Positions 1,962 through 30,335 of a stretch of DNA of 30,624 bases are shown piece after piece. Below the pieces are notes generated by a model. That model saw only the letters and a program-made list of their open reading frames with translations. It was not told the origin of the DNA and did no database searches. Both the position numbers and the translations under genes were made by a program. How positions within the stretch are numbered: the first letter of the stretch is position 1; each line of letters opens with the position of its first letter. Source of the DNA: Escherichia phage 186; sequence record NC_001317.1; one strand, 5' to 3'.

Positions 1962-3730
1962 TAATTAAACTCCAGAATGGATTTAGGCTGTATGCCGCTA
2001 CCGGCGGAAAGCGGTTCGTTTAACAGGGCGTGCATGGTCGCCCATGCAATATCGGCGTGACTGGCTTCCTCGGTGCGGCTGGCCTCGTAGGTGGCGCTGC
2101 GCCCGCTGCTGGTCATGGTTTTGCGGATGGACATAAACGACTGCGTGACGTCGGTTGCTCCGGCGTCGTACTCCAGACAGCCGCGGCGAATGGTGTCTTT
2201 TGCCTTGAGTACCATTGCGGTTTTCATTTCAGGCGTGTAACGGATGCCGCGTGCGGCCGGGTAGAATGAGCGCACCAACTGGAACACGCCGAGGCCGAGG
2301 CCGGTTGCGTCAATGCCGATGTATTCGACGCTGTATTTCTCGGTCAGTTTGCGGATGCCATCTGCCTGCGCGGCAAAGTCCATGCCCTTCCACTGGTGGC
2401 GCTCCAGCATGCGGAACTTGCCACCAGAAACCACCGGCGGCGCGAGCACGACGCACCCGGCGCTGTCGCCAGTGTGTGACGGGTCGTAGCCAATCCAGAC
2501 GGGGCGAGAGCCGAACGGATGGTCGGCGAACGGGGCGAAGTCCTCCCATTCTTCCATCACGTCGACCATGCAGCGCTGCAGCTCCTCGAACGGGAATACC
2601 GACGCTTTATCGTCGACAAACTCGCACATAAACAGGTTTTTAAAGTCCTCATCACTGTTTTCGCGTTTGAGTTGGTCGAGGTCGAACAGGGTGCAGCCAC
2701 CGGCAAGGGCGTCCTCAATGGTGACAATCTGCCGCCACTGGCCATCGTCGCAGAGCTGGCCACCGGCGAGCGCGCGGTGACTGATGTCAATTTCGATGCG
2801 GTCGGCAATACGGCTGCGCCCCTTGTTGAACAGCTCGCCAGACCAGAAGGGATAAGCGCCGTGCGCCAGCGTTGAGGGTGTCGAAAAGTAGGTTGAGCGC
2901 AGATGCTTCTGCGAGGCCATGCCCGAGGCGACTTTGCGCAGCTTCTGAAAATTCGGGATCCAGAATATTTCATCGACATACAGGTCGCCGTTATGGCTCT
3001 GAGCCGTGTTGGAGTTGGTACCGAGAAAAATCAGCTTTGCGCCGTTGTTGCCAATGACAATCGGGTCGCCGGTCAGGTCGACGTCAACCAGTCGCGCAAA
3101 CTGTATGATGTATTCGCGGAACACGTAAGCCTGCGTTTTACTGGCCGACAGAAAAATCTGGTTATGGCCGGTCTTGAGTGCTCGCAGCAGTGCCTCACGG
3201 GAAAAATAGAACGTCGCGCCAATCTGGCGGGATTTGAGAATGTCGCGAATACGGTGTGCCAGTCCTGCGCGGTACCACTGCAACTGGTACTCGAAAGACT
3301 GGTCGAAAAATAATTCCTCCAGCTTTTCGATAGCCTCGTCGCTGAAAAAATTCTTTTTCGGCTTCTTGCGCTCACCCTTGTTGCGGTTGGCGACGTTGGG
3401 GTTAAGGTCGGCCTCGTTGCCGGTCTGGCTGTAGCGGTTAACGCGTGCCAGTCGTTCAATCTGCCGCCCGAGCAGGTCAATCTCTTTGAAGTCACCGCCT
3501 GACTTTTGCGGCTTGGCGATGAGCTGAATCAGGCGCGCCTCAAGGCTGCTTTCAACGCGGGAAATCGGTGCGATGCCATCCCAGCCGTCGCGCTGTTTCC
3601 AGCTCTGCACGGTCGGGCGCTTGACCTGCAGCATTTCGGCAATCTGCGGCACGGAAAAACCCTGCCAGTAAAGCAGCGATGCCTGTCGTCGCGGGTCATG
3701 CAACAAGGTTGTATCGGTGGAAATGGTCAT
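1961..3730 (-). CDS. Terminase large subunit, ATPase plus nuclease (P2 gpP homolog)
   Basis: 589-aa ORF MTISTDTTLLHDPRRQASLLYWQGFSVPQIAEMLQV... with an N-terminal HTH-like region, a deviant Walker A (KSRQIGAT), Walker B (LYVDEIFW) and a C-terminal nuclease-like region (VWIGYDPSHTGDSAG). SD GAGG upstream. Confidence 0.93.
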   Translation of the reverse strand: MTISTDTTLLHDPRRQASLLYWQGFSVPQIAEMLQVKRPTVQSWKQRDGWDGIAPISRVESSLEARLIQLIAKPQKSGGDFKEIDLLGRQIERLARVNRYSQTGNEADLNPNVANRNKGERKKPKKNFFSDEAIEKLEELFFDQSFEYQLQWYRAGLAHRIRDILKSRQIGATFYFSREALLRALKTGHNQIFLSASKTQAYVFREYIIQFARLVDVDLTGDPIVIGNNGAKLIFLGTNSNTAQSHNGDLYVDEIFWIPNFQKLRKVASGMASQKHLRSTYFSTPSTLAHGAYPFWSGELFNKGRSRIADRIEIDISHRALAGGQLCDDGQWRQIVTIEDALAGGCTLFDLDQLKRENSDEDFKNLFMCEFVDDKASVFPFEELQRCMVDVMEEWEDFAPFADHPFGSRPVWIGYDPSHTGDSAGCVVLAPPVVSGGKFRMLERHQWKGMDFAAQADGIRKLTEKYSVEYIGIDATGLGLGVFQLVRSFYPAARGIRYTPEMKTAMVLKAKDTIRRGCLEYDAGATDVTQSFMSIRKTMTSSGRSATYEASRTEEASHADIAWATMHALLNEPLSAGSGIQPKSILEFN

Positions 3731-3895
3731 TGATGCCTCGCCGTAATGGATTCAGGGCAAGGCTACTTAATGGCCGTCAGTGATTCGCTAAGGTGCTGTT
3801 GTGTGGGCGGTTGTCCAGTCGTCATTGGTGGTCTGGCGTGTCCTGAGTCTGGAAACTGGCGGTGACCAGTAACCCCAACCTCAGGACTCCTGACA
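3731..3895. promoter_or_regulatory. Divergent late promoter region between the terminase operon (leftward) and the scaffold/capsid operon (rightward)
   Basis: 165-bp non-coding gap between divergently oriented late operons, as in P2 (P_P/P_O). No perfect TGT-N12-ACA activator dyad could be picked out by eye. Confidence 0.4.
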
Positions 3896-4750
3896 ATGGC
3901 AAAAAAAGTCTCAAAATTCTTTCGAATCGGCGTCGAGGGTGATACCTGCGACGGGCGCATTATCAGCGCCAGTGATATTCAGGAAATGGCCGAAACCTAT
4001 GACCCGCGTGTTTACGGTTGCCGTATCAACCTTGAACACCTGCGCGGCCTGTTGCCCGATGGCATATTCAAGCGTTACGGCGATGTGGTCGAGCTGAAAG
4101 CCGAGAAGATTGACGACGATTCTGCGCTTAACGGCAAGTGGGCGTTGTTCGCTAAAATCACCCCGACCGATGACCTTATCGCGATGAATAAAGCCGCGCA
4201 GAAGGTCTACACCTCAATGGAAATTCAGCCGAATTTTGCCAATACCGGCAAATGCTACCTCGTCGGCCTTGCTGTCACCGATGACCCGGCGAGCCTCGGC
4301 ACTGAATATCTCGAATTCTGCCGCACTGCGAAGCACAACCCGCTGCAGCGCTTTAAAGCCCACCCTGAAAACGTCTTTTCCGCCGCCACGCTGGCCGAAC
4401 TGGAATTTGAAGACGTTCCCGACACGGTGCTCAACAGCCTGGCCGATAAGGTGAAAGCCATTTTCAGCCGTAAGCAGGTCAGCGACGATGCGCGCCTGAA
4501 TGATGTACATGAAGCGGTGACCGCCGTCAGCGAGCATGTGCAGACCAACCTCACTGCACAGGATAAGCGTCTTTCCGATATGGAAACCGCGTTTGCCACC
4601 TTCAAACAGGAACTGACCGGCAAGGTTGAAGAAACCAGCCAGGCATTTTCCGTCCTGAAAACCACTCTCGACAAAACCGAAAGTTTCAGCCAGCCGCGAC
4701 GCACGAAAGCCAGCGGCGGTGGTGGCGATGAGCTGCTGACTGACTGCTGA
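3896..4750 (+). CDS. Capsid scaffolding protein (P2 gpO homolog)
   Basis: 284-aa ORF MAKKVSKFFRIGVEGDTCDGRIISA... closely resembling P2 gpO; first gene of the rightward head operon. Confidence 0.92.
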   Translation: MAKKVSKFFRIGVEGDTCDGRIISASDIQEMAETYDPRVYGCRINLEHLRGLLPDGIFKRYGDVVELKAEKIDDDSALNGKWALFAKITPTDDLIAMNKAAQKVYTSMEIQPNFANTGKCYLVGLAVTDDPASLGTEYLEFCRTAKHNPLQRFKAHPENVFSAATLAELEFEDVPDTVLNSLADKVKAIFSRKQVSDDARLNDVHEAVTAVSEHVQTNLTAQDKRLSDMETAFATFKQELTGKVEETSQAFSVLKTTLDKTESFSQPRRTKASGGGGDELLTDC

Positions 4751-5897: not shown

Positions 5898-6647
5898 ATG
5901 ACGAGCCCCGCACAGCGTCACATGATGCGGGTCTCGGCCTCTCAAGCCGCGCAGCGGGAACAAGCCCCGCTGCGCCATGCAACCGCCTATGAGCAGATGC
6001 TGGTTAAGCTGGCCGATGACCGCCGCACGTTAAAAAACATCCGTTCAAACGAACGTAAAGCCGAGAAAAAGCGCGAGCTGCTGCCGTTCTATGCGCCGTG
6101 GGTCGCCGGTGTGCTGACTGATGGTCGTGGTGCGCAGGATGACATTGTTATGACCGTCATGCTGTGGCGTCTCGATGCCGGTGATATCGCTGGCGCGCTG
6201 GAAATTGCCCCCTACGCGCTGAAGTACGGCCTCACCTCTGACCATCGCCGCACGACACCTTACATGCTGGTCGAGGAAGTGGCACTTGCCGCGCAGCGCC
6301 TGCGCGATGCCGGTGAGTCTGTCGACCTTTCCTGGCTGCAGGCCACTATCGACCTGACCGACGGCGCTGACGTTCCCGATATGGTGCGCGCCCGTCTGCA
6401 TAAGGTGACAGGCCTGACCCTGCGTGATGCCGGTATGAATGCAGAGGCGCTGGCGCAGTTTCAGCGCGCGATGCAGCTCGACCGCAATGCCGGTGTGCGC
6501 AAGGAGATTGAGCGACTGGAACGGGCATTGAAGCCAAAGACAGAGGCCGCGCCCCGTAAAACGACTAAACCGCGCACGCGTAAACCTGCCACCAAACCGG
6601 CAGCAAAGCGCGGGCGTCCACCAAAGGCGGCAAAAACCGCCGGTTAA
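5898..6647 (+). CDS. Terminase small subunit (P2 gpM homolog)
   Basis: ORF-track start 5802 overlaps the capsid gene; the internal ATG at 5898 (MTSPAQRHMMRVSA...) lies just after the capsid stop and matches the P2 gpM N-terminus. Basic Lys/Arg/Pro-rich C-terminal tail. Confidence 0.9.
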   Translation: MTSPAQRHMMRVSASQAAQREQAPLRHATAYEQMLVKLADDRRTLKNIRSNERKAEKKRELLPFYAPWVAGVLTDGRGAQDDIVMTVMLWRLDAGDIAGALEIAPYALKYGLTSDHRRTTPYMLVEEVALAAQRLRDAGESVDLSWLQATIDLTDGADVPDMVRARLHKVTGLTLRDAGMNAEALAQFQRAMQLDRNAGVRKEIERLERALKPKTEAAPRKTTKPRTRKPATKPAAKRGRPPKAAKTAG

Positions 6648-19376: not shown

Positions 19377-20542
19377 TTACGGGCATGACTATTGACGCCG
19401 GAACTAGCCTTGCACCGGCATTTATGTTAACGCTGAACAGCCAGGACATTACCAGCAATTTTAGTGACCGGCTGATTTCTCTCACCATGACAGACAACCG
19501 GGGCTTTGAGGCTGACCAGCTCGACATTGAGCTCGACGACACCGACGGCAAAGTCGAATTACCACTGCGCGGGGCGGTGCTGACGTTGTGGCTTGGCTGG
19601 CAGGGTTCGGCGCTTCTGAATAAGGGCGATTTCACGGTCGATGAGATTGAGCACCGGGGCGCGCCTGATATCCTGACCATCCGCGCGCGTAGTGCAGACT
19701 TTCGCGGAACGCTCAATTCACGGCGTGAAGAATCATGGCACGATACTACCATCGGTGAGTTGGTCAGCACCATTGCAAAGCGCAATAAACTGACGGCCAG
19801 TGTCGCGGATTCACTGAAAAAAATTCCGGTACCGCATATCGACCAGTCGCAGGAGTCCGACGCCGTATTTCTGACCCGACTGGCTGACCGCAATGGGGCG
19901 ACGGTGTCAGTGAAAGCGGGGAAACTCCTGTTTCTGAAAGCCGGTAGTGCGATGACGGCCAGCGGCAAGCCCGTCCCGCAAATGACACTAACTCGCAACG
20001 ATGGTGACCGTCATCAGTTTGCTATTGCCGACCGTGGGGCTTACACCGGCGTAACCGCAAAATGGTTGCACACCAAAGACCCGAAGCCGCAAAAGCAGAA
20101 AGTAACACTGAAACGCAAGCCAAAAGAGAAGCACCTGCGCGCACTGGAGCACCCGAAAGCAAAGCCAGTCAGCAAAAAGACAAAGGCCAAAAAAGAGCCG
20201 GAAGCGCGCGAGGGTGAGTATATGGCCGGTGAGGCCGATAACGTGCTGGCGCTGACGACGGTCTACGCTTCTAAGGCGCAGGCGATGCGTGCCGCTCAGG
20301 CTAAGTGGGATAAGCTGCAGCGAGGCGTTGCGGAGTTTTCAATTACGCTGGCGCTTGGTAGGGCTGATTTATTCCCTGAGACACCGGTGCGCGTATCAGG
20401 CTTTAAGCGCGTCATAGATGAGCAGGCATGGTTAATCAGTAAGGTAACTCACAATCTGAATAATAGCGGCTTCACGACGGGCTTAGAGCTTGAGGTTAAA
20501 CTCTCTGATGTGGAGTACAACGCGGAATCGGATGATGAATAA
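19373..20542 (+). CDS. Tail protein (P2 gpD homolog)
   Basis: 389-aa ORF overlapping the gpU stop, SD GGAGGA upstream; last gene of the late tail operon. Basic KPKPQKQKVTLKRKPKEKH region. Confidence 0.88.
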   Translation: MITGMTIDAGTSLAPAFMLTLNSQDITSNFSDRLISLTMTDNRGFEADQLDIELDDTDGKVELPLRGAVLTLWLGWQGSALLNKGDFTVDEIEHRGAPDILTIRARSADFRGTLNSRREESWHDTTIGELVSTIAKRNKLTASVADSLKKIPVPHIDQSQESDAVFLTRLADRNGATVSVKAGKLLFLKAGSAMTASGKPVPQMTLTRNDGDRHQFAIADRGAYTGVTAKWLHTKDPKPQKQKVTLKRKPKEKHLRALEHPKAKPVSKKTKAKKEPEAREGEYMAGEADNVLALTTVYASKAQAMRAAQAKWDKLQRGVAEFSITLALGRADLFPETPVRVSGFKRVIDEQAWLISKVTHNLNNSGFTTGLELEVKLSDVEYNAESDDE

Positions 20543-20547
20543 AATGT

Positions 20548-20564
20548 ATTCACAAAAAGTGAAT
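20548..20564. promoter_or_regulatory. Inverted repeat ATTCAC-N5-GTGAAT in the promoter region of the late activator gene (putative repressor operator)
   Basis: ATTCACAAAAAGTGAAT 45 bp upstream of the activator start; the same dyad recurs at 22725..22741 and 23404..23420. Confidence 0.5.
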
Positions 20565-20608
20565 TTATGATTATCATTTATTCACGAATTGAGAATAAAG
20601 GGTGGGTT

Positions 20609-20827
20609 ATGTTTCATTGTCCGAAGTGCCATCATGCCGCACATGCGCGAACAAGCCGCTATCTAACCGAAAACACGAAAGAACGCTACCACCAGTGCCA
20701 GAACATCAACTGTAGTTGTACGTTTATGACAATGGAAACGATAGAGCGCTTTATTGTTACTCCGGGAGCCATTGACCCGGCACCGCCTCACCCGACTGTC
20801 GGTGGTCAGCGGCCATTGTGGCTCTGA
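20609..20827 (+). CDS. B: Ogr/B-family zinc-finger late-gene transcriptional activator
   Basis: ORF-track start 20567 replaced by the ATG at 20609, giving a 72-aa protein MFHCPKCHHAAHARTSRYLTENTKERYHQCQNINCSCTF... with the C-x2-C...C-x4-C zinc-binding pattern of P2 Ogr. Symbol B follows my recollection of phage 186 nomenclature. Confidence 0.9.
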   Translation: MFHCPKCHHAAHARTSRYLTENTKERYHQCQNINCSCTFMTMETIERFIVTPGAIDPAPPHPTVGGQRPLWL

Positions 20828-20844
20828 TAAATTTCCGCTAAATG

Positions 20845-20866
20845 CCCGCCGCGTGCGGGTTTTTTT
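20845..20866 (+). terminator. Rho-independent terminator after the late activator gene
   Basis: CCCGC-CGCGT-GCGGG hairpin followed by TTTTTTT, 18 nt after the stop codon. Confidence 0.65.
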
Positions 20867-20932
20867 ATGCACTCAGGAAAGTGGCGGTAAAAAATCCACC
20901 GCCATTCTATCGCCACTCGAAAACGAGGCAAC

Positions 20933-20957
20933 AAAAAGGCCACTCGAGAGAGTGGCC
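20933..20957 (-). terminator. Minus-strand hairpin plus U-run just beyond the att core (terminator for leftward int-operon transcripts; sib-like position)
   Basis: Perfect 8-bp stem GGCCACTC/GAGTGGCC with a 4-nt loop; on the minus strand it is followed by TTTTT. Lies on the far side of the att core from int. Confidence 0.45.
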
Positions 20958-20984
20958 TAACTGTATGTATTTACTACTTAAATT

Positions 20985-21030
20985 TGGTGGCCCCTGCTGG
21001 ACTTGAACCAGCGACCAAGCGATTATGAGT
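20985..21030 (-). other. attP core: 46-nt segment identical in form to the 3' end (anticodon loop to CCA) of a tRNA-Ile(CAU)-type gene
   Basis: The minus strand reads ACTCATAATCGCTTGGTCGCTGGTTCAAGTCCAGCAGGGGCCACCA: anticodon loop with CAT, T-arm GGTTCAAGTCC, acceptor 3' strand and CCA. No 5' half of the tRNA is present, so this is an attachment-site fragment, not a tRNA gene. Confidence 0.8.
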
Positions 21031-21156
21031 TCCTACAAGAACAACCGAAAATCAATAGTATGCGTTATTTATCATTGACATAGATTGCCATTGTTTGCCA
21101 ATAATTACCTATTATTCGCCATTTCTACCGCCACTTTATCGCCATTCTATTATCTG

Positions 21157-21408
21157 TTACTCAGAACCATCGCCGACATAGGTTCCATCAGGTGCGAGAT
21201 GATATCTTCCACCAACATAAGTCCCATCTGGGGCAAGTGTTGGGCGGCCAGCAACATAACTTCCATTTGGCGCTAAGCGTGGAACGCCACCGACATAAGT
21301 TCCATCGGGTGCAAGGCGTGGTGCTCCTCCTCCAACATAAGTCCCATTAGGGGCAAGCATAGGTTGTCCGTAAACATAGGTACCATCAGGTGCTAATCGA
21401 ACTGACAT
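21157..21408 (-). CDS. Small tandem-repeat protein (six roughly 13-aa LAPDGTYVGG-type repeats), function unknown
   Basis: 83-aa ORF with a strong SD (GGAGG, 4-nt spacer) 14 nt downstream of the integrase stop. Protein is MSVR followed by repeats LAPDGTYVYGQPM / LAPNGTYVGGGAPR / LAPDGTYVGGVPR / LAPNGSYVAGRPT / LAPDGTYVGGRYH / LAPDGTYVGDGSE. Confidence 0.6.
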   Translation of the reverse strand: MSVRLAPDGTYVYGQPMLAPNGTYVGGGAPRLAPDGTYVGGVPRLAPNGSYVAGRPTLAPDGTYVGGRYHLAPDGTYVGDGSE

Positions 21409-21422
21409 ACAACCTCCATAAC

Positions 21423-22433
21423 TTATTTGCTGTTAGTAATGTGAACTAAAGGATTTAGTTTAACTGCATCCTCTAAATGGTCGGGTGCAAAGTGCGCATA
21501 TCGCATGGTCATTTTTATATCTGTATGGCCGAGTACGCGCTGCAACACCAAAATATTACCGCCATTCATCATAAAGTGACTAGCGAAGGTGTGACGTAAA
21601 ACGTGGGTAAGTTGTCCTGCCGGTAGTTCGATACCTGTTCTTTCCAAAGCTGACCGGAACGCGCCATAACAATCACTGAACAACCGGCCCTTTTTATCAT
21701 CAGGCAGAGACTCATAGAGCTCTTTGCTGATTGGGACGGTGCGATTTTTTCTACCTTTCGTGTTGGTGTATGTGATTTTGTATTTCGCGAGTTGGCTTTT
21801 TCTCAGACTCTCGGCCTCAGACCACCGTGCGCCAGTTGCGAGACAGATTCTTACCACGGTTTCTAAATCAGGGTGGTCATGTCGGTTACACTCTCCGAGC
21901 AGTTGCGAAATTTGGTCGTGAGTTAGCCAAGTCATTTCCATTTCTTCTGTGCGGAATGGGCGCATATTTTTTAGTGGGTTTTCACCCTTCCATTCTCCGA
22001 GGCGGTTTAGCTCATTGAACACCGCCCGGAAGTAGGCCAGCTCAAGATTAAGCGTGCGAGGCGATACCTCTTTCACTCTGTTTGAACGGGCATACTCACC
22101 TTTTAACCGTTTTTCTCGGTAGCGGGAAAACATCTGCGCATCGAAATCGCGTGCGAGTGGTTCGCCCATACACTCAAAAGCATGGTGCATGGCTAACTGG
22201 CGTTTCAAACCATCTTTCAGTGTAATGCCATGAGCGCTATACCATGAATCAACCAGCTCTTTTAACGTGCGCCTGTCTTCCTTTTCTTCCTGCCACGGGT
22301 TTTGAACGGTGTACTGCTCAAACGCCAGAGCCTCGCCTTTAGTAGCGAATTTCTTTCTGATACGTTTGCCTTTTGCACCGTTTGGGTAGAGTTCACAAAT
22401 CCAACCGCCAGCCGGATTTTTACGGACGGTCAT
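21423..22433 (-). CDS. int: Tyrosine integrase
   Basis: 336 aa with tyrosine-recombinase motifs: LATGARWSEAESL (Arg), HVLRHTFASHF (His-x-x-Arg), LGHTDIKMTMRYAHF (His and catalytic Tyr). Adjacent to attP; its start overlaps the repressor stop. Confidence 0.95.
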   Translation of the reverse strand: MTVRKNPAGGWICELYPNGAKGKRIRKKFATKGEALAFEQYTVQNPWQEEKEDRRTLKELVDSWYSAHGITLKDGLKRQLAMHHAFECMGEPLARDFDAQMFSRYREKRLKGEYARSNRVKEVSPRTLNLELAYFRAVFNELNRLGEWKGENPLKNMRPFRTEEMEMTWLTHDQISQLLGECNRHDHPDLETVVRICLATGARWSEAESLRKSQLAKYKITYTNTKGRKNRTVPISKELYESLPDDKKGRLFSDCYGAFRSALERTGIELPAGQLTHVLRHTFASHFMMNGGNILVLQRVLGHTDIKMTMRYAHFAPDHLEDAVKLNPLVHITNSK

Positions 22434-23011
22434 TAGTTAACCTCGCTGTATACACCCACCACACGCCCCAACGTTTTAATATCATCAATGCCGCATTCGA
22501 AAGGAACCTTCCCGCCTGCAACATGTAGTTTTCTACCCGGTAGTTTTGTTAACTCTCGAATGCTTATTGCTCCCTCAATGTCGACTAGCCATAAGCCGTC
22601 AGACAATGATGCTTGCTTGTCCACAAAATAAATTTTCCCCTCGGAACGGATAGCCATCCCATCTGTGAGCGGTTTTGTGAAAAATTGGGCATCAACACTC
22701 AATTGTTTATCGGATTTGAGGATTTCTTCACTTAATGTGAATCCCTCAATCCTTTTTGCGTCGCTCGATTCTCTGTTATTTACAAATGCTTCTCCTTCTC
22801 CGGTAAGTAACCACTGGAGATTAGCACCTGTTTCAAGGGCACAGTGAGCCGCAAAGTCATAGGAGATAGCGCCTCGGGTGTACCTGTTTGACAATGAGCT
22901 GGACGCGATATCGAAGTGGTTAGCTAATTGAATTTTCTGCGAAAATCCGTACGCCTCGCAGATGCGGTCAAGTACATCCACGTTGCTCCATCCTAAAGAA
23001 TCTATTCTCAT
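22433..23011 (-). CDS. cI: Lysogeny (immunity) repressor, 186 CI-type
   Basis: 192-aa ORF MRIDSLGWSNVDVLDRICEAYGFSQKIQLANHFDIASSSLSNRYTRGAISYDFAAHCALETGANLQWLLTGEG...: N-terminal HTH domain plus C-terminal domain. Divergent from the early operon and co-transcribed with int. Size and sequence match my recollection of phage 186 CI (P2 C is only about 99 aa). Confidence 0.88.
   Translation of the reverse strand: MRIDSLGWSNVDVLDRICEAYGFSQKIQLANHFDIASSSLSNRYTRGAISYDFAAHCALETGANLQWLLTGEGEAFVNNRESSDAKRIEGFTLSEEILKSDKQLSVDAQFFTKPLTDGMAIRSEGKIYFVDKQASLSDGLWLVDIEGAISIRELTKLPGRKLHVAGGKVPFECGIDDIKTLGRVVGVYSEVN
22725..22741. promoter_or_regulatory. Inverted repeat CTTCAC-N5-GTGAAT inside the repressor gene (putative flanking operator, left)
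   Basis: CTTCACTTAATGTGAAT, about 370 bp left of the switch region; same dyad as at the late-activator promoter and at 23404..23420. Confidence 0.45.
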
Positions 23012-23140
23012 TTCGATAAAACCTATTTACTATCTCTCAATTGGGAGATATATTTTGGCTAAACCCACGCAATTGATGGCAAGTGTTGGCAAACAGAGTC
23101 AAATCAATTGCAAACTTTGGCTAATAGGGAATCATGCAAT
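23012..23140. promoter_or_regulatory. Lysis/lysogeny switch region: divergent promoters for cI (leftward) and apl/cII (rightward) with operator-like dyads
   Basis: 129-bp intergenic region containing the palindrome ATCTC-TCAATTGG-GAGAT (23022..23039), three CAATTG hexamers (about 23029, 23067, 23096) and a direct repeat TTTGGCTAA (about 23044 and 23114). Confidence 0.6.
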
Positions 23141-23404
23141 ATGGCTTCTGAAATCGCAATCATCAAAGTGCCTGCACCTATCGTTACTCTGCAACAATTC
23201 GCAGAGCTTGAGGGTGTTTCTGAACGCACCGCCTACCGCTGGACAACCGGCGACAACCCTTGTGTACCAATCGAACCCCGCACAATCCGTAAAGGCTGCA
23301 AGAAAGCAGGTGGCCCGATTCGCATTTATTACGCACGCTGGAAAGAAGAGCAGTTGCGTAAGGCGTTGGGACATTCCCGTTTTCAACTCGTCATCGGTGC
23401 TTAA
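23141..23404 (+). CDS. apl: Apl/Cox-type excisionase and transcriptional regulator
   Basis: The ORF track starts at a TTG (23108); the ATG at 23141 (SD AGGGA) gives an 87-aa protein MASEIAIIKVPAPIVTLQQFAELEGVSERTAYRWTTG... with an Xis-like HTH. First gene of the rightward early operon. Confidence 0.85.
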   Translation: MASEIAIIKVPAPIVTLQQFAELEGVSERTAYRWTTGDNPCVPIEPRTIRKGCKKAGGPIRIYYARWKEEQLRKALGHSRFQLVIGA

Positions 23405-23420
23405 TTCACTTTATGTGAAT
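23404..23420. promoter_or_regulatory. Inverted repeat ATTCAC-N5-GTGAAT between apl and cII (putative flanking operator, right)
   Basis: ATTCACTTTATGTGAAT, about 310 bp right of the switch region. Confidence 0.45.
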
Positions 23421-23434
23421 TGTAAGGATGCAAC

Positions 23435-23944
23435 ATGTTTGATTTTCAGGTTTCCAAACATCCCCACTATGACGAAGCGTGCCGGGCTTTTGCGCAGCGT
23501 CACAACATGGCGAAGCTGGCCGAGCGTGCGGGTATGAATGTTCAAACGTTACGTAACAAGCTCAACCCAGAACAGCCTCACCAGTTCACGCCGCCTGAAT
23601 TGTGGCTGCTGACTGACCTGACCGAAGACTCAACCCTCGTTGATGGTTTTCTGGCGCAGATTCATTGTCTGCCATGCGTGCCGGTTAATGAGCTGGCTAA
23701 AGATAAATTGCAGTCTTACGTCATGCGCGCAATGAGTGAACTCGGTGAACTGGCGAGCGGTGCGGTATCTGATGAGCGTCTGACCACTGCCCGTAAGCAC
23801 AACATGATTGAAAGCGTTAACTCCGGCATTCGCATGTTGTCATTGTCGGCTCTGGCGCTGCATGCACGTCTGCAGACTAATCCCGCTATGTCGAGCGTGG
23901 TCGATACCATGAGCGGTATTGGCGCATCGTTTGGTCTGATTTGA
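23435..23944 (+). CDS. cII: CII-type transcriptional activator for establishment of lysogeny
   Basis: 169-aa ORF, SD AAGGA upstream, with an HTH (NMAKLAERAGMNVQTLRNKLN). Position after apl, and size matches my recollection of 186 CII. Confidence 0.85.
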   Translation: MFDFQVSKHPHYDEACRAFAQRHNMAKLAERAGMNVQTLRNKLNPEQPHQFTPPELWLLTDLTEDSTLVDGFLAQIHCLPCVPVNELAKDKLQSYVMRAMSELGELASGAVSDERLTTARKHNMIESVNSGIRMLSLSALALHARLQTNPAMSSVVDTMSGIGASFGLI

Positions 23945-29603: not shown

Positions 29604-30335
29604 ATGGATACCGTAATAGCATTTTTATCTCTGGCTCTCTTTATTGCTTTTATCGTCGGGTTAATCAAGCCGTCGCTGGTTCGAATGCCGAGCCGTAAGC
29701 GCTCCAGTGCTGTTTATCTCGGTGGCTGTCTGGCGCTGGGCGTTATTGGCTCAATCTTATGGCCGACTGAAAAAACTCAGCCGGTGGCAAAAACTGACGT
29801 ACCGGCGGTTAAAGCGGAACCGGCTACGCCAACGTTTGAGTACGCAGATAAAACCCTCAAAGAATATCGCAACGAGCCAAAAGAAACCCGGCACGAAATC
29901 GTTAAAGACTATGTTGGATTCAAAGGTGTGCAGGCCAGCGCTACCGATGTTTTTTATGCCTGTATGAGCGAGTACACTTTTACCAAAGATGATGCGTTAA
30001 AGCTCAGTGATGTGTTGGGGTGGTGTTTCAACGACTTCGAGAAAGATCCACAATCTCTGAATAATAAAATCAACCTTGACGAATTTCAGGGTAATTTTAG
30101 CGGTTGGGATGGCTCTTATCGCCCGTTAGAGAAGCTGATAAAAGCCAGTATGAATGATGATTCCTCTTATAAACATGTTTCAACGGTCTACCATCTGATT
30201 TTGAATAAAGACCCGCATGCCGTTGTAAAAACAACGTTTCGCGGCACTAATGCTTATGGTGGCGTGGTCAAACAGACCGTAGCAGCACGCGTCAACGTGC
30301 GAACGGGCGAGGTCGATTCAATACTCGACAATTAA
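29604..30335 (+). CDS. Membrane-anchored protein of unknown function (N-terminal TM helix plus about 200-aa soluble domain)
   Basis: ORF-track start 29535 would read through the terminator; the ATG at 29604 with SD AAGGAAA gives 243 aa. One hydrophobic helix (VIAFLSLALFIAFIVGLI), a second hydrophobic stretch (VYLGGCLALGVIGSILW), then a hydrophilic domain. Confidence 0.65.
   Translation: MDTVIAFLSLALFIAFIVGLIKPSLVRMPSRKRSSAVYLGGCLALGVIGSILWPTEKTQPVAKTDVPAVKAEPATPTFEYADKTLKEYRNEPKETRHEIVKDYVGFKGVQASATDVFYACMSEYTFTKDDALKLSDVLGWCFNDFEKDPQSLNNKINLDEFQGNFSGWDGSYRPLEKLIKASMNDDSSYKHVSTVYHLILNKDPHAVVKTTFRGTNAYGGVVKQTVAARVNVRTGEVDSILDN

Follow-up and report, generated by a model that had tools for sequence, protein, structure and literature searches.

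Inverted repeats at three places in the coliphage 186 genome correspond to known operators of its CI repressor

The inverted repeat ATTCAC-N5-GTGAAT recurs in the genome of coliphage 186 at both sides of the lysogeny switch and also in front of a gene for late activation, which raises the question of which protein would read this dyad. The sequence-only reading had proposed three copies of a repressor site, two of them acting on the switch through DNA looping and the third controlling the late activator promoter directly. In the present work the window is the whole coliphage 186 genome (30,624 bp), and the analysis covers positions, non-randomness, identity of the repressor, agreement with published distances and fragments, promoter overlap at the level of consensus and selection at the DNA level. 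The dyads are, with a probability of about 95%, secondary-type operators of the 186 CI immunity repressor. They are the published CI sites pB, FL and FR, so that the identification is correct and long known, with nothing of substance that differs. We take this system to be that described by Dodd & Egan (1996, 2002), Dibbens et al. (1992), Pinkett et al. (2006) and Wang et al. (2013), and the class name of the dyads to be the 'B-type' of Shearwin et al. (2002). The sites are as follows (no strand is assigned).

20548..20564: predicted pB operator dyad 1, perfect ATTCAC-AAAAA-GTGAAT, overlapping the predicted -35 hexamer of pB
20580..20596: predicted pB operator dyad 2, ATTCACGAATTGAGAAT, ATTCAC-GAATT-GAGAAT, with 1 mismatch, over the predicted transcription start
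22726..22742: predicted FL operator, CTTCACTTAATGTGAAT, CTTCAC-TTAAT-GTGAAT on the + strand (ATTCACATTAAGTGAAG in the cI sense)
23404..23420: predicted FR operator, perfect ATTCAC-TTTAT-GTGAAT, in the 30-bp apl-cII spacer

A search of the whole genome found exact copies at 20548..20564 (ATTCACAAAAAGTGAAT) and 23404..23420 (ATTCACTTTATGTGAAT), in both cases with the sequence and coordinates originally proposed, and none of 100 dinucleotide shuffles had any exact match. Allowing up to one mismatch, the genome contains four sites versus 0.03 expected (the largest value in a shuffle was 1) and, allowing up to two, six versus 1.26. The dyad is non-random, strongly over-represented and confined to the pB, FL and FR places. 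The gene context given by the sequence-only reading (upstream of the late activator B, within cI, and between apl and cII) was right, as was its naming of FL, FR and pB as features of 186. The copy within cI exists but had been placed one base off, at 22725..22741 (which is TCTTCACTTAATGTGAA), and carries one mismatch (CTTCAC for ATTCAC), so that the phrase 'same inverted repeat' is only approximately true. Likewise, the count of three holds for places but not for sites, since the one-mismatch dyad at 20580..20596 had been missed. Two sites with two mismatches were considered as operators and rejected. That at 23584..23600 (GTTCACGCCGCCTGAAT), inside cII, has a G+C-rich spacer, in which it differs from all other sites, and only some of the FR-bearing relatives have it, a pattern that coding conservation of cII alone would fit. 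The other one, at 30046..30062, is without support, about 1.3 such sites being expected by chance.

With respect to the protein involved, the switch region contains the following features.

22433..23011, - strand: cI, immunity repressor, 192 aa, with an HTH domain (12-76) and a C-terminal oligomerisation domain (93-185)
23026..23054, + strand: promoter-like site pR, TTTACT-17-TATATT, enclosing the 20-bp palindrome TATCTCTCAATTGGGAGATA at 23031..23050
23141..23404, + strand: apl, excisionase and switch regulator, whose homologues in relatives are annotated apl/Cox
23435..23944, + strand: cII, lysogeny-establishment activator (Pfam PF06892, E = 3.7e-48)

The cI product is the protein of PDB entry 2FJR ("186 CI") over residues 4-192, with one difference (E in the genome, K in the chain), and also matches PDB 2FKD. 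It contains the Pfam domains PF07022 (Phage_CI_repr) and PF16452 (Phage_CI_C), and the start and end of the gene agree with the published pCYMR-6.186cI insert. The centres of the cI-internal and apl-cII dyads, 22734 and 23412, are 678 bp apart, which is exactly the centre-to-centre distance reported between FL and FR (Wang et al. 2013). The published 'pR-pL only' fragment has one primer at 22779..22801 (+) and the other at 23287..23306 (-); these delimit 528 bp (22779..23306), as published, and both switch-flanking dyads fall outside it, FL to the left of 22779 and FR to the right of 23306. A primer of the published 'FL only' fragment maps to 22787..22806 (-), and the FL dyad is inside that fragment. 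These primer positions place FL and FR where the dyads are. Genome, repressor, the 678-bp spacing, primer positions and CI control of pB all match, and the assignment of the operators thus appears sound on distances, primers and secondary citations rather than on published operator sequences.

FR shares its first base with the apl stop codon and precedes the cII Shine-Dalgarno sequence by 3 nt. The pR palindrome is centred on 23040.5, with FL at a distance of 306.5 bp and FR, on the opposite side, at 371.5 bp; the offsets of roughly -370 and +310 bp proposed previously hold only relative to about position 23100. According to the literature, pR has three strong CI operators, spaced by two turns of the helix. 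The two outer ones, sought at +/-21 bp from the central palindrome, were not recognisable by symmetry, and only the central one was located. The dyad is distinct in sequence from the pR palindrome, and a single CI HTH is reported to recognise two types of inverted repeat.

What follows on CI binding at these sites, on looping and on regulation comes from published work, including atomic force microscopy (AFM) and TPM data. FL and FR assist repression of pR and let CI activate pL by means of loops to a CI wheel, and AFM has shown CI bound at FL, pR-pL and FR, with all the predicted looped species and pairwise loops imaged (Wang et al. 2013). In the mechanism that we favour, FL and FR would be single distal operators on either side of pR, and the wheel of seven CI dimers sitting on the three strong pR operators would capture one or the other, looping about 300 bp. 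Such capture would strengthen pR repression and, because space on the wheel is limited, would also displace the weakly wrapped pL DNA. CI would then repress the lytic promoter while its own promoter stays on, and transcriptional interference with pL would be lifted. With CI abundant, FL, FR and pR-pL would each be filled by a wheel of their own, and pL would be repressed. The looping expected of the distal sites is supported by the identity of the repressor, the 678-bp spacing, the mapping of the fragments and the loops seen by AFM, but not a lambda-style pairing of operators, since a 14-mer wheel is involved for whose space FL and FR partly compete with pL DNA.

The third place is the promoter region of the late activator gene, with the following features.

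20549..20577, + strand: predicted promoter pB, TTCACA-17 nt-TATCAT, σ70-like, overlapping dyad 1 and followed by dyad 2
20609..20827, + strand: gene B, late-gene activator, 72 aa, an Ogr/Delta zinc finger (Pfam PF04606, E = 2.4e-21)
20982..21070, no strand assigned: host-homologous segment (attP core region), between B and int

Dyad 1 starts 6 bp past the D stop codon, and the B start codon is 45 bp downstream of it. The hexamers of the predicted promoter match the consensus at 10 of 12 positions, the best score in 20400..23700 (a consensus match only), and the -10 hexamer is flanked on both sides by the two dyads, which are 32 bp apart. A passage in PMC8538670, citing Dibbens et al. 1992, states that the promoter of the late activator B is repressed by CI. 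This statement and the overlap of dyad 1 with the predicted -35 hexamer uphold the proposed repressor control of pB, now with two dyads instead of one. CI bound at both, on the -35 hexamer and at the predicted start, would block RNA polymerase, and B, hence all late genes, would be silent in the lysogen. We infer a functional role for the second dyad.

Of 5426 complete E. coli genomes, 5421 have a match to part of the segment 20960..21070, and most of the IMG/VR loci derived from prophages stop about 1.6 kb after the cI start, just beyond int. The host homology of the attP region is drawn from this E. coli genome comparison, ARAGORN and Rfam having given no tRNA there. Since attP is located between B and int, pB in the prophage is at the far end of the element, apart from the switch; its repression must therefore be local, with no loop to the switch, and we infer that it is autonomous.

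The sites were compared with those of six GenBank phages and 80 IMG/VR loci with a 186-like CI (58-100% identity). Dyads are kept at FR, FL and pB in the six phages, whose CI proteins are 58-87% identical. Among the 80 IMG/VR loci, FR has at most one mismatch in 76, with conserved arms and a variable A/T spacer, and FL at most two mismatches in 78. Dyad 1 precedes the B homologues of MHG75, EtG and ENT90 too, and it is conserved in 19 unique IMG/VR contexts. The imperfect dyad 2 is kept in place, with mismatches that differ among relatives; for instance, it is ATTCATTATTTGTGAGT in the loci L093/L096 and a perfect copy, ATTCACATTGTGTGAAT, in Klebsiella phage Kp4884-2; EtG (3 mismatches) and ENT90 have a weak one or none. 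The dyad arms are invariant over 47-59 unique contexts, and no compensatory changes were seen. This conservation indicates that the dyads are under purifying selection at the DNA level, independent of coding, across the relatives.

A clear footprint of such selection is seen at FL, which occupies cI codons 90-96 (G-F-T-L-S-E-E). In codons 91-95, synonymous positions are identical in 29 of 30 comparisons versus 39-58% elsewhere in cI. Residue 90 is variable (G, S, I, T or K), yet its codon ends in A in six out of seven sequences (counting that of 186). In relatives with a 186-like CI, the DNA of FL is invariant even at synonymous positions and stands as an island in a variable linker: F-T-L-S-E is found in at least 59 distinct sequence contexts while the linker around it varies freely, and in relatives lacking the FL dyad the aligned CI residues differ from F-T-L-S-E. 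FL appears to be an overlapping code, in which selection on the operator seems to fix F-T-L-S-E, codon for codon, where the two CI domains meet.

ATTCAC-N5-GTGAAT is absent from YenM_324 and PSP3, two relatives with a divergent CI that retain similar apl, cII and B genes. The CI recognition helix of YenM_324 is fairly similar, yet the dyad is lacking, so HTH sequence does not predict the dyad in any simple way. PSP3, whose CI is about 33% identical, carries a different dyad, with a TTGCAAA-nn-CAA core, at the three analogous places, 2676..2693, 3412..3429 and 5969..5986 of the PSP3 locus L008. The layout (a site at the late-activator promoter, another inside cI and a third between the apl-like gene and cII) may therefore survive a change of immunity specificity, as judged from these sequences. 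Both extensions, namely FL as an overlapping code and the three-location layout as a conserved design, may be absent from the literature; that they hold jointly is put at somewhat below even odds.

Other explanations of the dyads were weighed against CI binding. They might act at the RNA level, as hairpins in the D-B, cI and apl-cII transcripts that terminate transcription, direct processing or regulate translation, since every dyad can fold a hairpin of 5-8 bp, with z-scores of -1.9 to -3.7, FR comes shortly before the ribosome-binding site of cII and dyad 1 closely follows the D stop. However, these hairpins are weak (-2.9 to -7.1 kcal/mol), a short T-rich stretch follows dyad 1 only, and none of the dyads was called terminator-like. 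Invariant arms devoid of compensatory changes are the signature of a sequence-specific DNA site, the dyad is common to three unrelated transcripts and both transcript orientations, and published work places CI protein at FL and FR, all of which makes an RNA role highly improbable. Binding by a host factor or by another phage regulator, such as Apl, CII or B, is equally implausible. Although another palindrome, ATGATTATCAT, is present in the pB region between the two dyads, the Apl operators reported at pR-pL and attP are 6-bp direct repeats and not inverted repeats, published AFM and footprinting put CI at FL and FR, and the dyad tracks the 186-like CI, being missing where CI is divergent even if apl, cII and B are similar.

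CI bound at FL and FR could also act locally and without looping, for instance as a roadblock or occluder of transcription into int or cII. FR is immediately upstream of cII and FL is inside the lysogenic operon, looped species in vitro were rarer than the published model predicts, and an in vivo loopometer assay of pR-FL looping by 186 CI had an inconclusive outcome. However, in published AFM elongation assays CI at pR/pL and FR 'negligibly interfered with transcription', effects of FL and FR on pR and pL about 300 bp off have been reported and all the pairwise loops have been imaged, so that a purely local action is very unlikely. That the repeats are chance matches or inherited sequence devoid of function has nothing in its favour besides the shortness of the motif (12 specified bases), and it is already refuted by the shuffles and by DNA-level conservation in both a variable coding linker and a variable intergenic spacer; its probability is practically nil. 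Operators of CI, looping to the switch from FL and FR, are the reading retained.

As in lambda CI acting at OL-OR, distal operators and looping tighten repression of the lytic promoter and autoregulate the repressor's own promoter. Lambda uses two clusters of three operators 2.3 kb apart and a dimer-octamer-dodecamer assembly; in 186, by contrast, the wheel of seven dimers is preformed and the distal operators are single dyads, some 300-370 bp from the switch. No second copy with up to two mismatches was found within 150 bp of FL or FR, which therefore do not form clusters of the lambda OL/OR type. Moreover, the distal operators of 186 differ in sequence from its main pR operators, unlike those of lambda-type clusters, and they activate the maintenance promoter, through displacement on the wheel and relief of interference between face-to-face promoters. 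P2 belongs to a related phage family that shares with 186 the face-to-face early promoters and an Ogr/Delta late activator, but the P2 C repressor is small, unrelated to 186 CI and acts at one site, where it binds a pair of direct repeats, and the P2 and WPhi genomes showed no distal sites.

The 186 switch is a textbook alternative to that of lambda; it combines a 14-mer repressor wheel with wrapped and looped DNA and with relief of transcriptional interference. A reading of the sequence alone located its established operators, two of three exactly and one off by a base, and reached essentially the published interpretation. The published picture of this switch is unchanged, and the additions are modest and comparative: the sites are kept in about 85 related phages and prophages, pB consistently has a second, weaker dyad (EtG and ENT90 being the exceptions), and FL bears the footprint of DNA-level selection in a coding linker.

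The inverted repeat ATTCAC-N5-GTGAAT (the dyad) recurs in the 186 genome far above chance expectation, and this repetition is real. A genome scan finds two exact copies, at 20548..20564 and 23404..23420, and genome shuffles contain none; with up to one mismatch allowed, four sites are observed against 0.03 expected, so that chance matches are excluded as an explanation. The spacers of all four are A/T-rich. The sequence-only reading had described three copies of one repeat. The coordinates of the two exact copies were right, but the third, proposed at 22725..22741, is present in cI at 22726..22742 with one mismatch, and a fourth had been overlooked.

Dyads and associated genes of coliphage 186
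20548..20564, dyad 1 at pB (promoter of the late activator gene B), exact copy
20580..20596, dyad 2 at pB, ATTCACGAATTGAGAAT, 1 mismatch, centre-to-centre 32 bp from dyad 1
20609..20827, B, Ogr/Delta zinc finger (Pfam)
22433..23011, minus strand, cI, 192 aa, Phage_CI_repr and Phage_CI_C (Pfam)
22726..22742, FL, inside cI, reads CTTCACTTAATGTGAAT, 1 mismatch to the dyad
23404..23420, FR, apl-cII spacer, exact copy
cII, Phage_CP76 (Pfam)

Two further sites carry two mismatches (23584..23600 and 30046..30062), a number within chance expectation (about 1.3). The former (GTTCACGCCGCCTGAAT) lies within cII, 180 bp right of FR, and has a G+C-rich spacer; about half of the related loci keep it, probably only through cII coding.

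The 30,624-bp window is the coliphage 186 genome. Its cI product matches residues 4-192 of PDB 2FJR_A ("Repressor protein CI") at all but one position, where the window has E and the crystallised chain K, and also matches 2FKD, a C-terminal-domain 14-mer; Wang et al. 2013 (PMC3675496) identify both entries as structures of 186 CI. The ends of the published 186 cI expression insert agree with the window, in which each of three published switch-fragment primers occurs once. According to the same study, FL and FR help to repress the lytic promoter pR and let CI activate the lysogenic promoter pL, and AFM images show all pairwise loops among FL, pR and FR. The dyad centres in cI (22734) and between apl and cII (23412) are exactly 678 bp apart, which is the published FL-FR distance. 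Moreover, the published primer positions, including that of the "FL only" fragment primer (22787..22806, pointing left), place FL left of ~22779 and FR right of 23306, where the dyads are found. The dyads are therefore the pB, FL and FR operators of 186 themselves, not merely similar sites, and were already known. The names given in the sequence-only reading were thus correct, and its view of distal operators acting through looping is supported by the AFM loops and the published spacing. Its offsets of about -370 and +310 bp hold for a reference point near 23100; the distances to the centre of the palindrome at pR (23031..23050) are 306.5 bp for FL and 371.5 bp for FR.

The pR palindrome itself, TATCTCTCAATTGGGAGATA, shows symmetric changes in relatives (records L001, L002, L003 and L005), for instance TACTTCTCAATTGGGAAGTA in MHG75 and TATCTCCCAATATGGAGATA in YenM_56.17, and varies even where CI has exactly the same helix-turn-helix (HTH) region as in 186. 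Between pR and pL, TTGGC-containing direct repeats about 10-11 bp apart (23055..23125) correspond to the Apl operators, of which seven are published.

Direct repressor control of the late-activator promoter, also proposed from sequence, agrees both with published CI repression of this promoter (PMC8538670, citing Dibbens et al. 1992) and with the position of the dyads. Within 20400..23700, the sequence most like a σ70 promoter is TTCACA-17-TATCAT, before B (20549..20577, 10/12 consensus positions). Dyad 1 covers the -35 hexamer and spacer of this predicted pB, and dyad 2, which begins 3 bp past the -10 hexamer, spans the expected start site and lies 13 bp upstream of the start codon of B. The inner arms of both dyads, together with a palindrome (ATGATTATCAT) holding the -10 hexamer, make up a nested imperfect 27-bp palindrome, GTGAAT-TT-ATGATTATCAT-TT-ATTCAC (20559..20585, centred on 20572), whose centre bears what we take to be a loose resemblance to a Fur box.

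Between B and int, the segment 20982..21070 has a match in nearly every E. coli chromosome (5421/5426 complete genomes). In 24 E. coli genomes, including K-12-derived laboratory strains, the match covers 80% of a 111-bp query (98.9% identity) and carries no annotated feature, which suggests a 186-like att remnant beside the host target. Most prophage-derived relatives stop just beyond int. Taken together, the host-homologous segment and the ends of the relatives place pB of a lysogen at the opposite prophage end from the switch. We infer that pB is repressed autonomously; the presence of two dyads at this promoter is consistent with that. An 83-aa ORF between attP and int (21157..21408, minus strand), with about six L-A-P-(D/N)-G-T-Y-V-G-G repeats and a weak match to Pfam PD40 (WD40-like beta-propeller repeat, E = 5e-6), adjoins attP and would thus fall at a prophage end.

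The dyad is kept at all three places in six GenBank phages with 58-87% CI identity to 186 (MHG75, YenM_56.17, YenM_201.16, Kp4884-2, EtG and ENT90). Among 80 IMG/VR loci (CI 65-100% identical), the best match has at most one mismatch at the FR position in 76 and at most two at the FL position in 78. The FR arms form a conserved island amid a variable spacer, their 5-bp centre differing among A/T-rich strings. At FL, the synonymous positions of the codons for F-T-L-S-E are identical in 29/30 pairwise comparisons, while in the rest of cI the same codon is used at only 39-58% of conserved residues. The third base of codon 90, which is the first base of the FL dyad, is A in 6/7 sequences (186 included) although residue 90 is variable (G, S, I, T, K). 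Coding imposes the single FL mismatch, which falls on the first base of codon 96 (Glu). FTLSE (codons 91-95, 22727..22741) lies at the boundary between the HTH (12-76) and C-terminal (93-185) domains of CI. The linker residues around it vary widely among 59 unique contexts, and dyad-less relatives have EKLID or SRLES in its place. These comparisons suggest that the FL operator fixes the peptide as well as its codons. A scan of the collection for dyad-N7-TATCAT gave 24 unique contexts, 19 of them directly upstream of a B homologue; there, the second pB site persists as an imperfect dyad whose mismatches differ between lineages, and in Kp4884-2 the downstream dyad is a perfect copy. This pattern is as expected from selection on a protein-binding DNA site, which argues that dyad 2 is functional.

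No dyad was found in the 6-7.5 kb examined of each of YenM_324 (L007, CI 47%) and PSP3 (L008, CI 33%). PSP3 has a different 18-bp dyad with the common core TTGCAAAnnCAA (copies AACTTGCAAAATCAAGTT, AGCTTGCAAATGCAAATT and AGTTTGCATTTGCAAGTT):

PSP3 dyads
L008 2676..2693, apl-like/cII gap
L008 3412..3429, inside cI
L008 5969..5986, ~45-60 bp upstream of the B/ogr homologue

One further two-mismatch match lies in the 7.5 kb (5689), so that the arrangement of the three copies may be due to chance. Their positions hint that the heteroimmune PSP3 retains the three-location layout of 186 with its own dyad. As annotated, PSP3 cI (3186..4046, 287 aa) encodes apparently two tandem N-terminal HTH copies (containing VLERLMSAYGVKMQKDLADLLGIAKHSVSGWVQRD and VLRRILDAYGFTMQKELGDLLGISSGTISTWVRRD) followed by one C-terminal domain. 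The YenM_324 apl-cII spacer holds ATTCA-GAA-TGAAT (3084..3096), whose half-site resembles the 186 dyad with a 3-bp spacer versus 5+2 in 186; only a few residues of its CI recognition helix differ from those of 186.

Other roles for the dyads fare poorly. They are unlikely to act as RNA hairpins, since these would be weak (-2.9 to -7.1 kcal/mol), none scores as terminator-like, and the arms are invariant, without compensatory change. Binding by a protein other than CI is also unlikely: Apl sites are direct repeats, and dyad occurrence tracks 186-like CI. A purely local roadblock is contradicted by published data, in which 186 CI does not impede elongation.

The site positions and evolutionary evidence come from this analysis, and binding, looping and regulatory effects from the literature. 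In the published model of CI action at these operators, which we adopt, three adjacent CI dimers would occupy three strong pR operators, with neighbouring pL DNA wrapped weakly on the CI wheel. Binding of the same wheel by FL or FR through a ~300-bp loop would increase pR occupancy and displace pL. With pR off, pL would then remain active and be freed from transcriptional interference. As CI levels rise, each site would carry its own wheel and pL would be repressed; at pB, CI would occlude the promoter directly. However, the model predicts more 186 CI loops than were seen in vitro, and for technical reasons a looping assay with intact 186 CI in vivo gave no clear result.

Distal-site looping in 186 is alike in purpose to OL-OR looping in lambda. 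However, 186 has one dyad per distal site where lambda has operator clusters, loops over ~300 bp versus 2.3 kb and, unlike lambda, has a preformed 14-mer CI wheel and distal sites that differ in sequence from the main operators. No description of the second pB dyad, the FL selection footprint or the PSP3 layout was found in the accessible literature. These represent minor additions to a known system: a second dyad at pB, a footprint of DNA-level selection for FL in the inter-domain linker of CI, and a hint of the same layout in PSP3.
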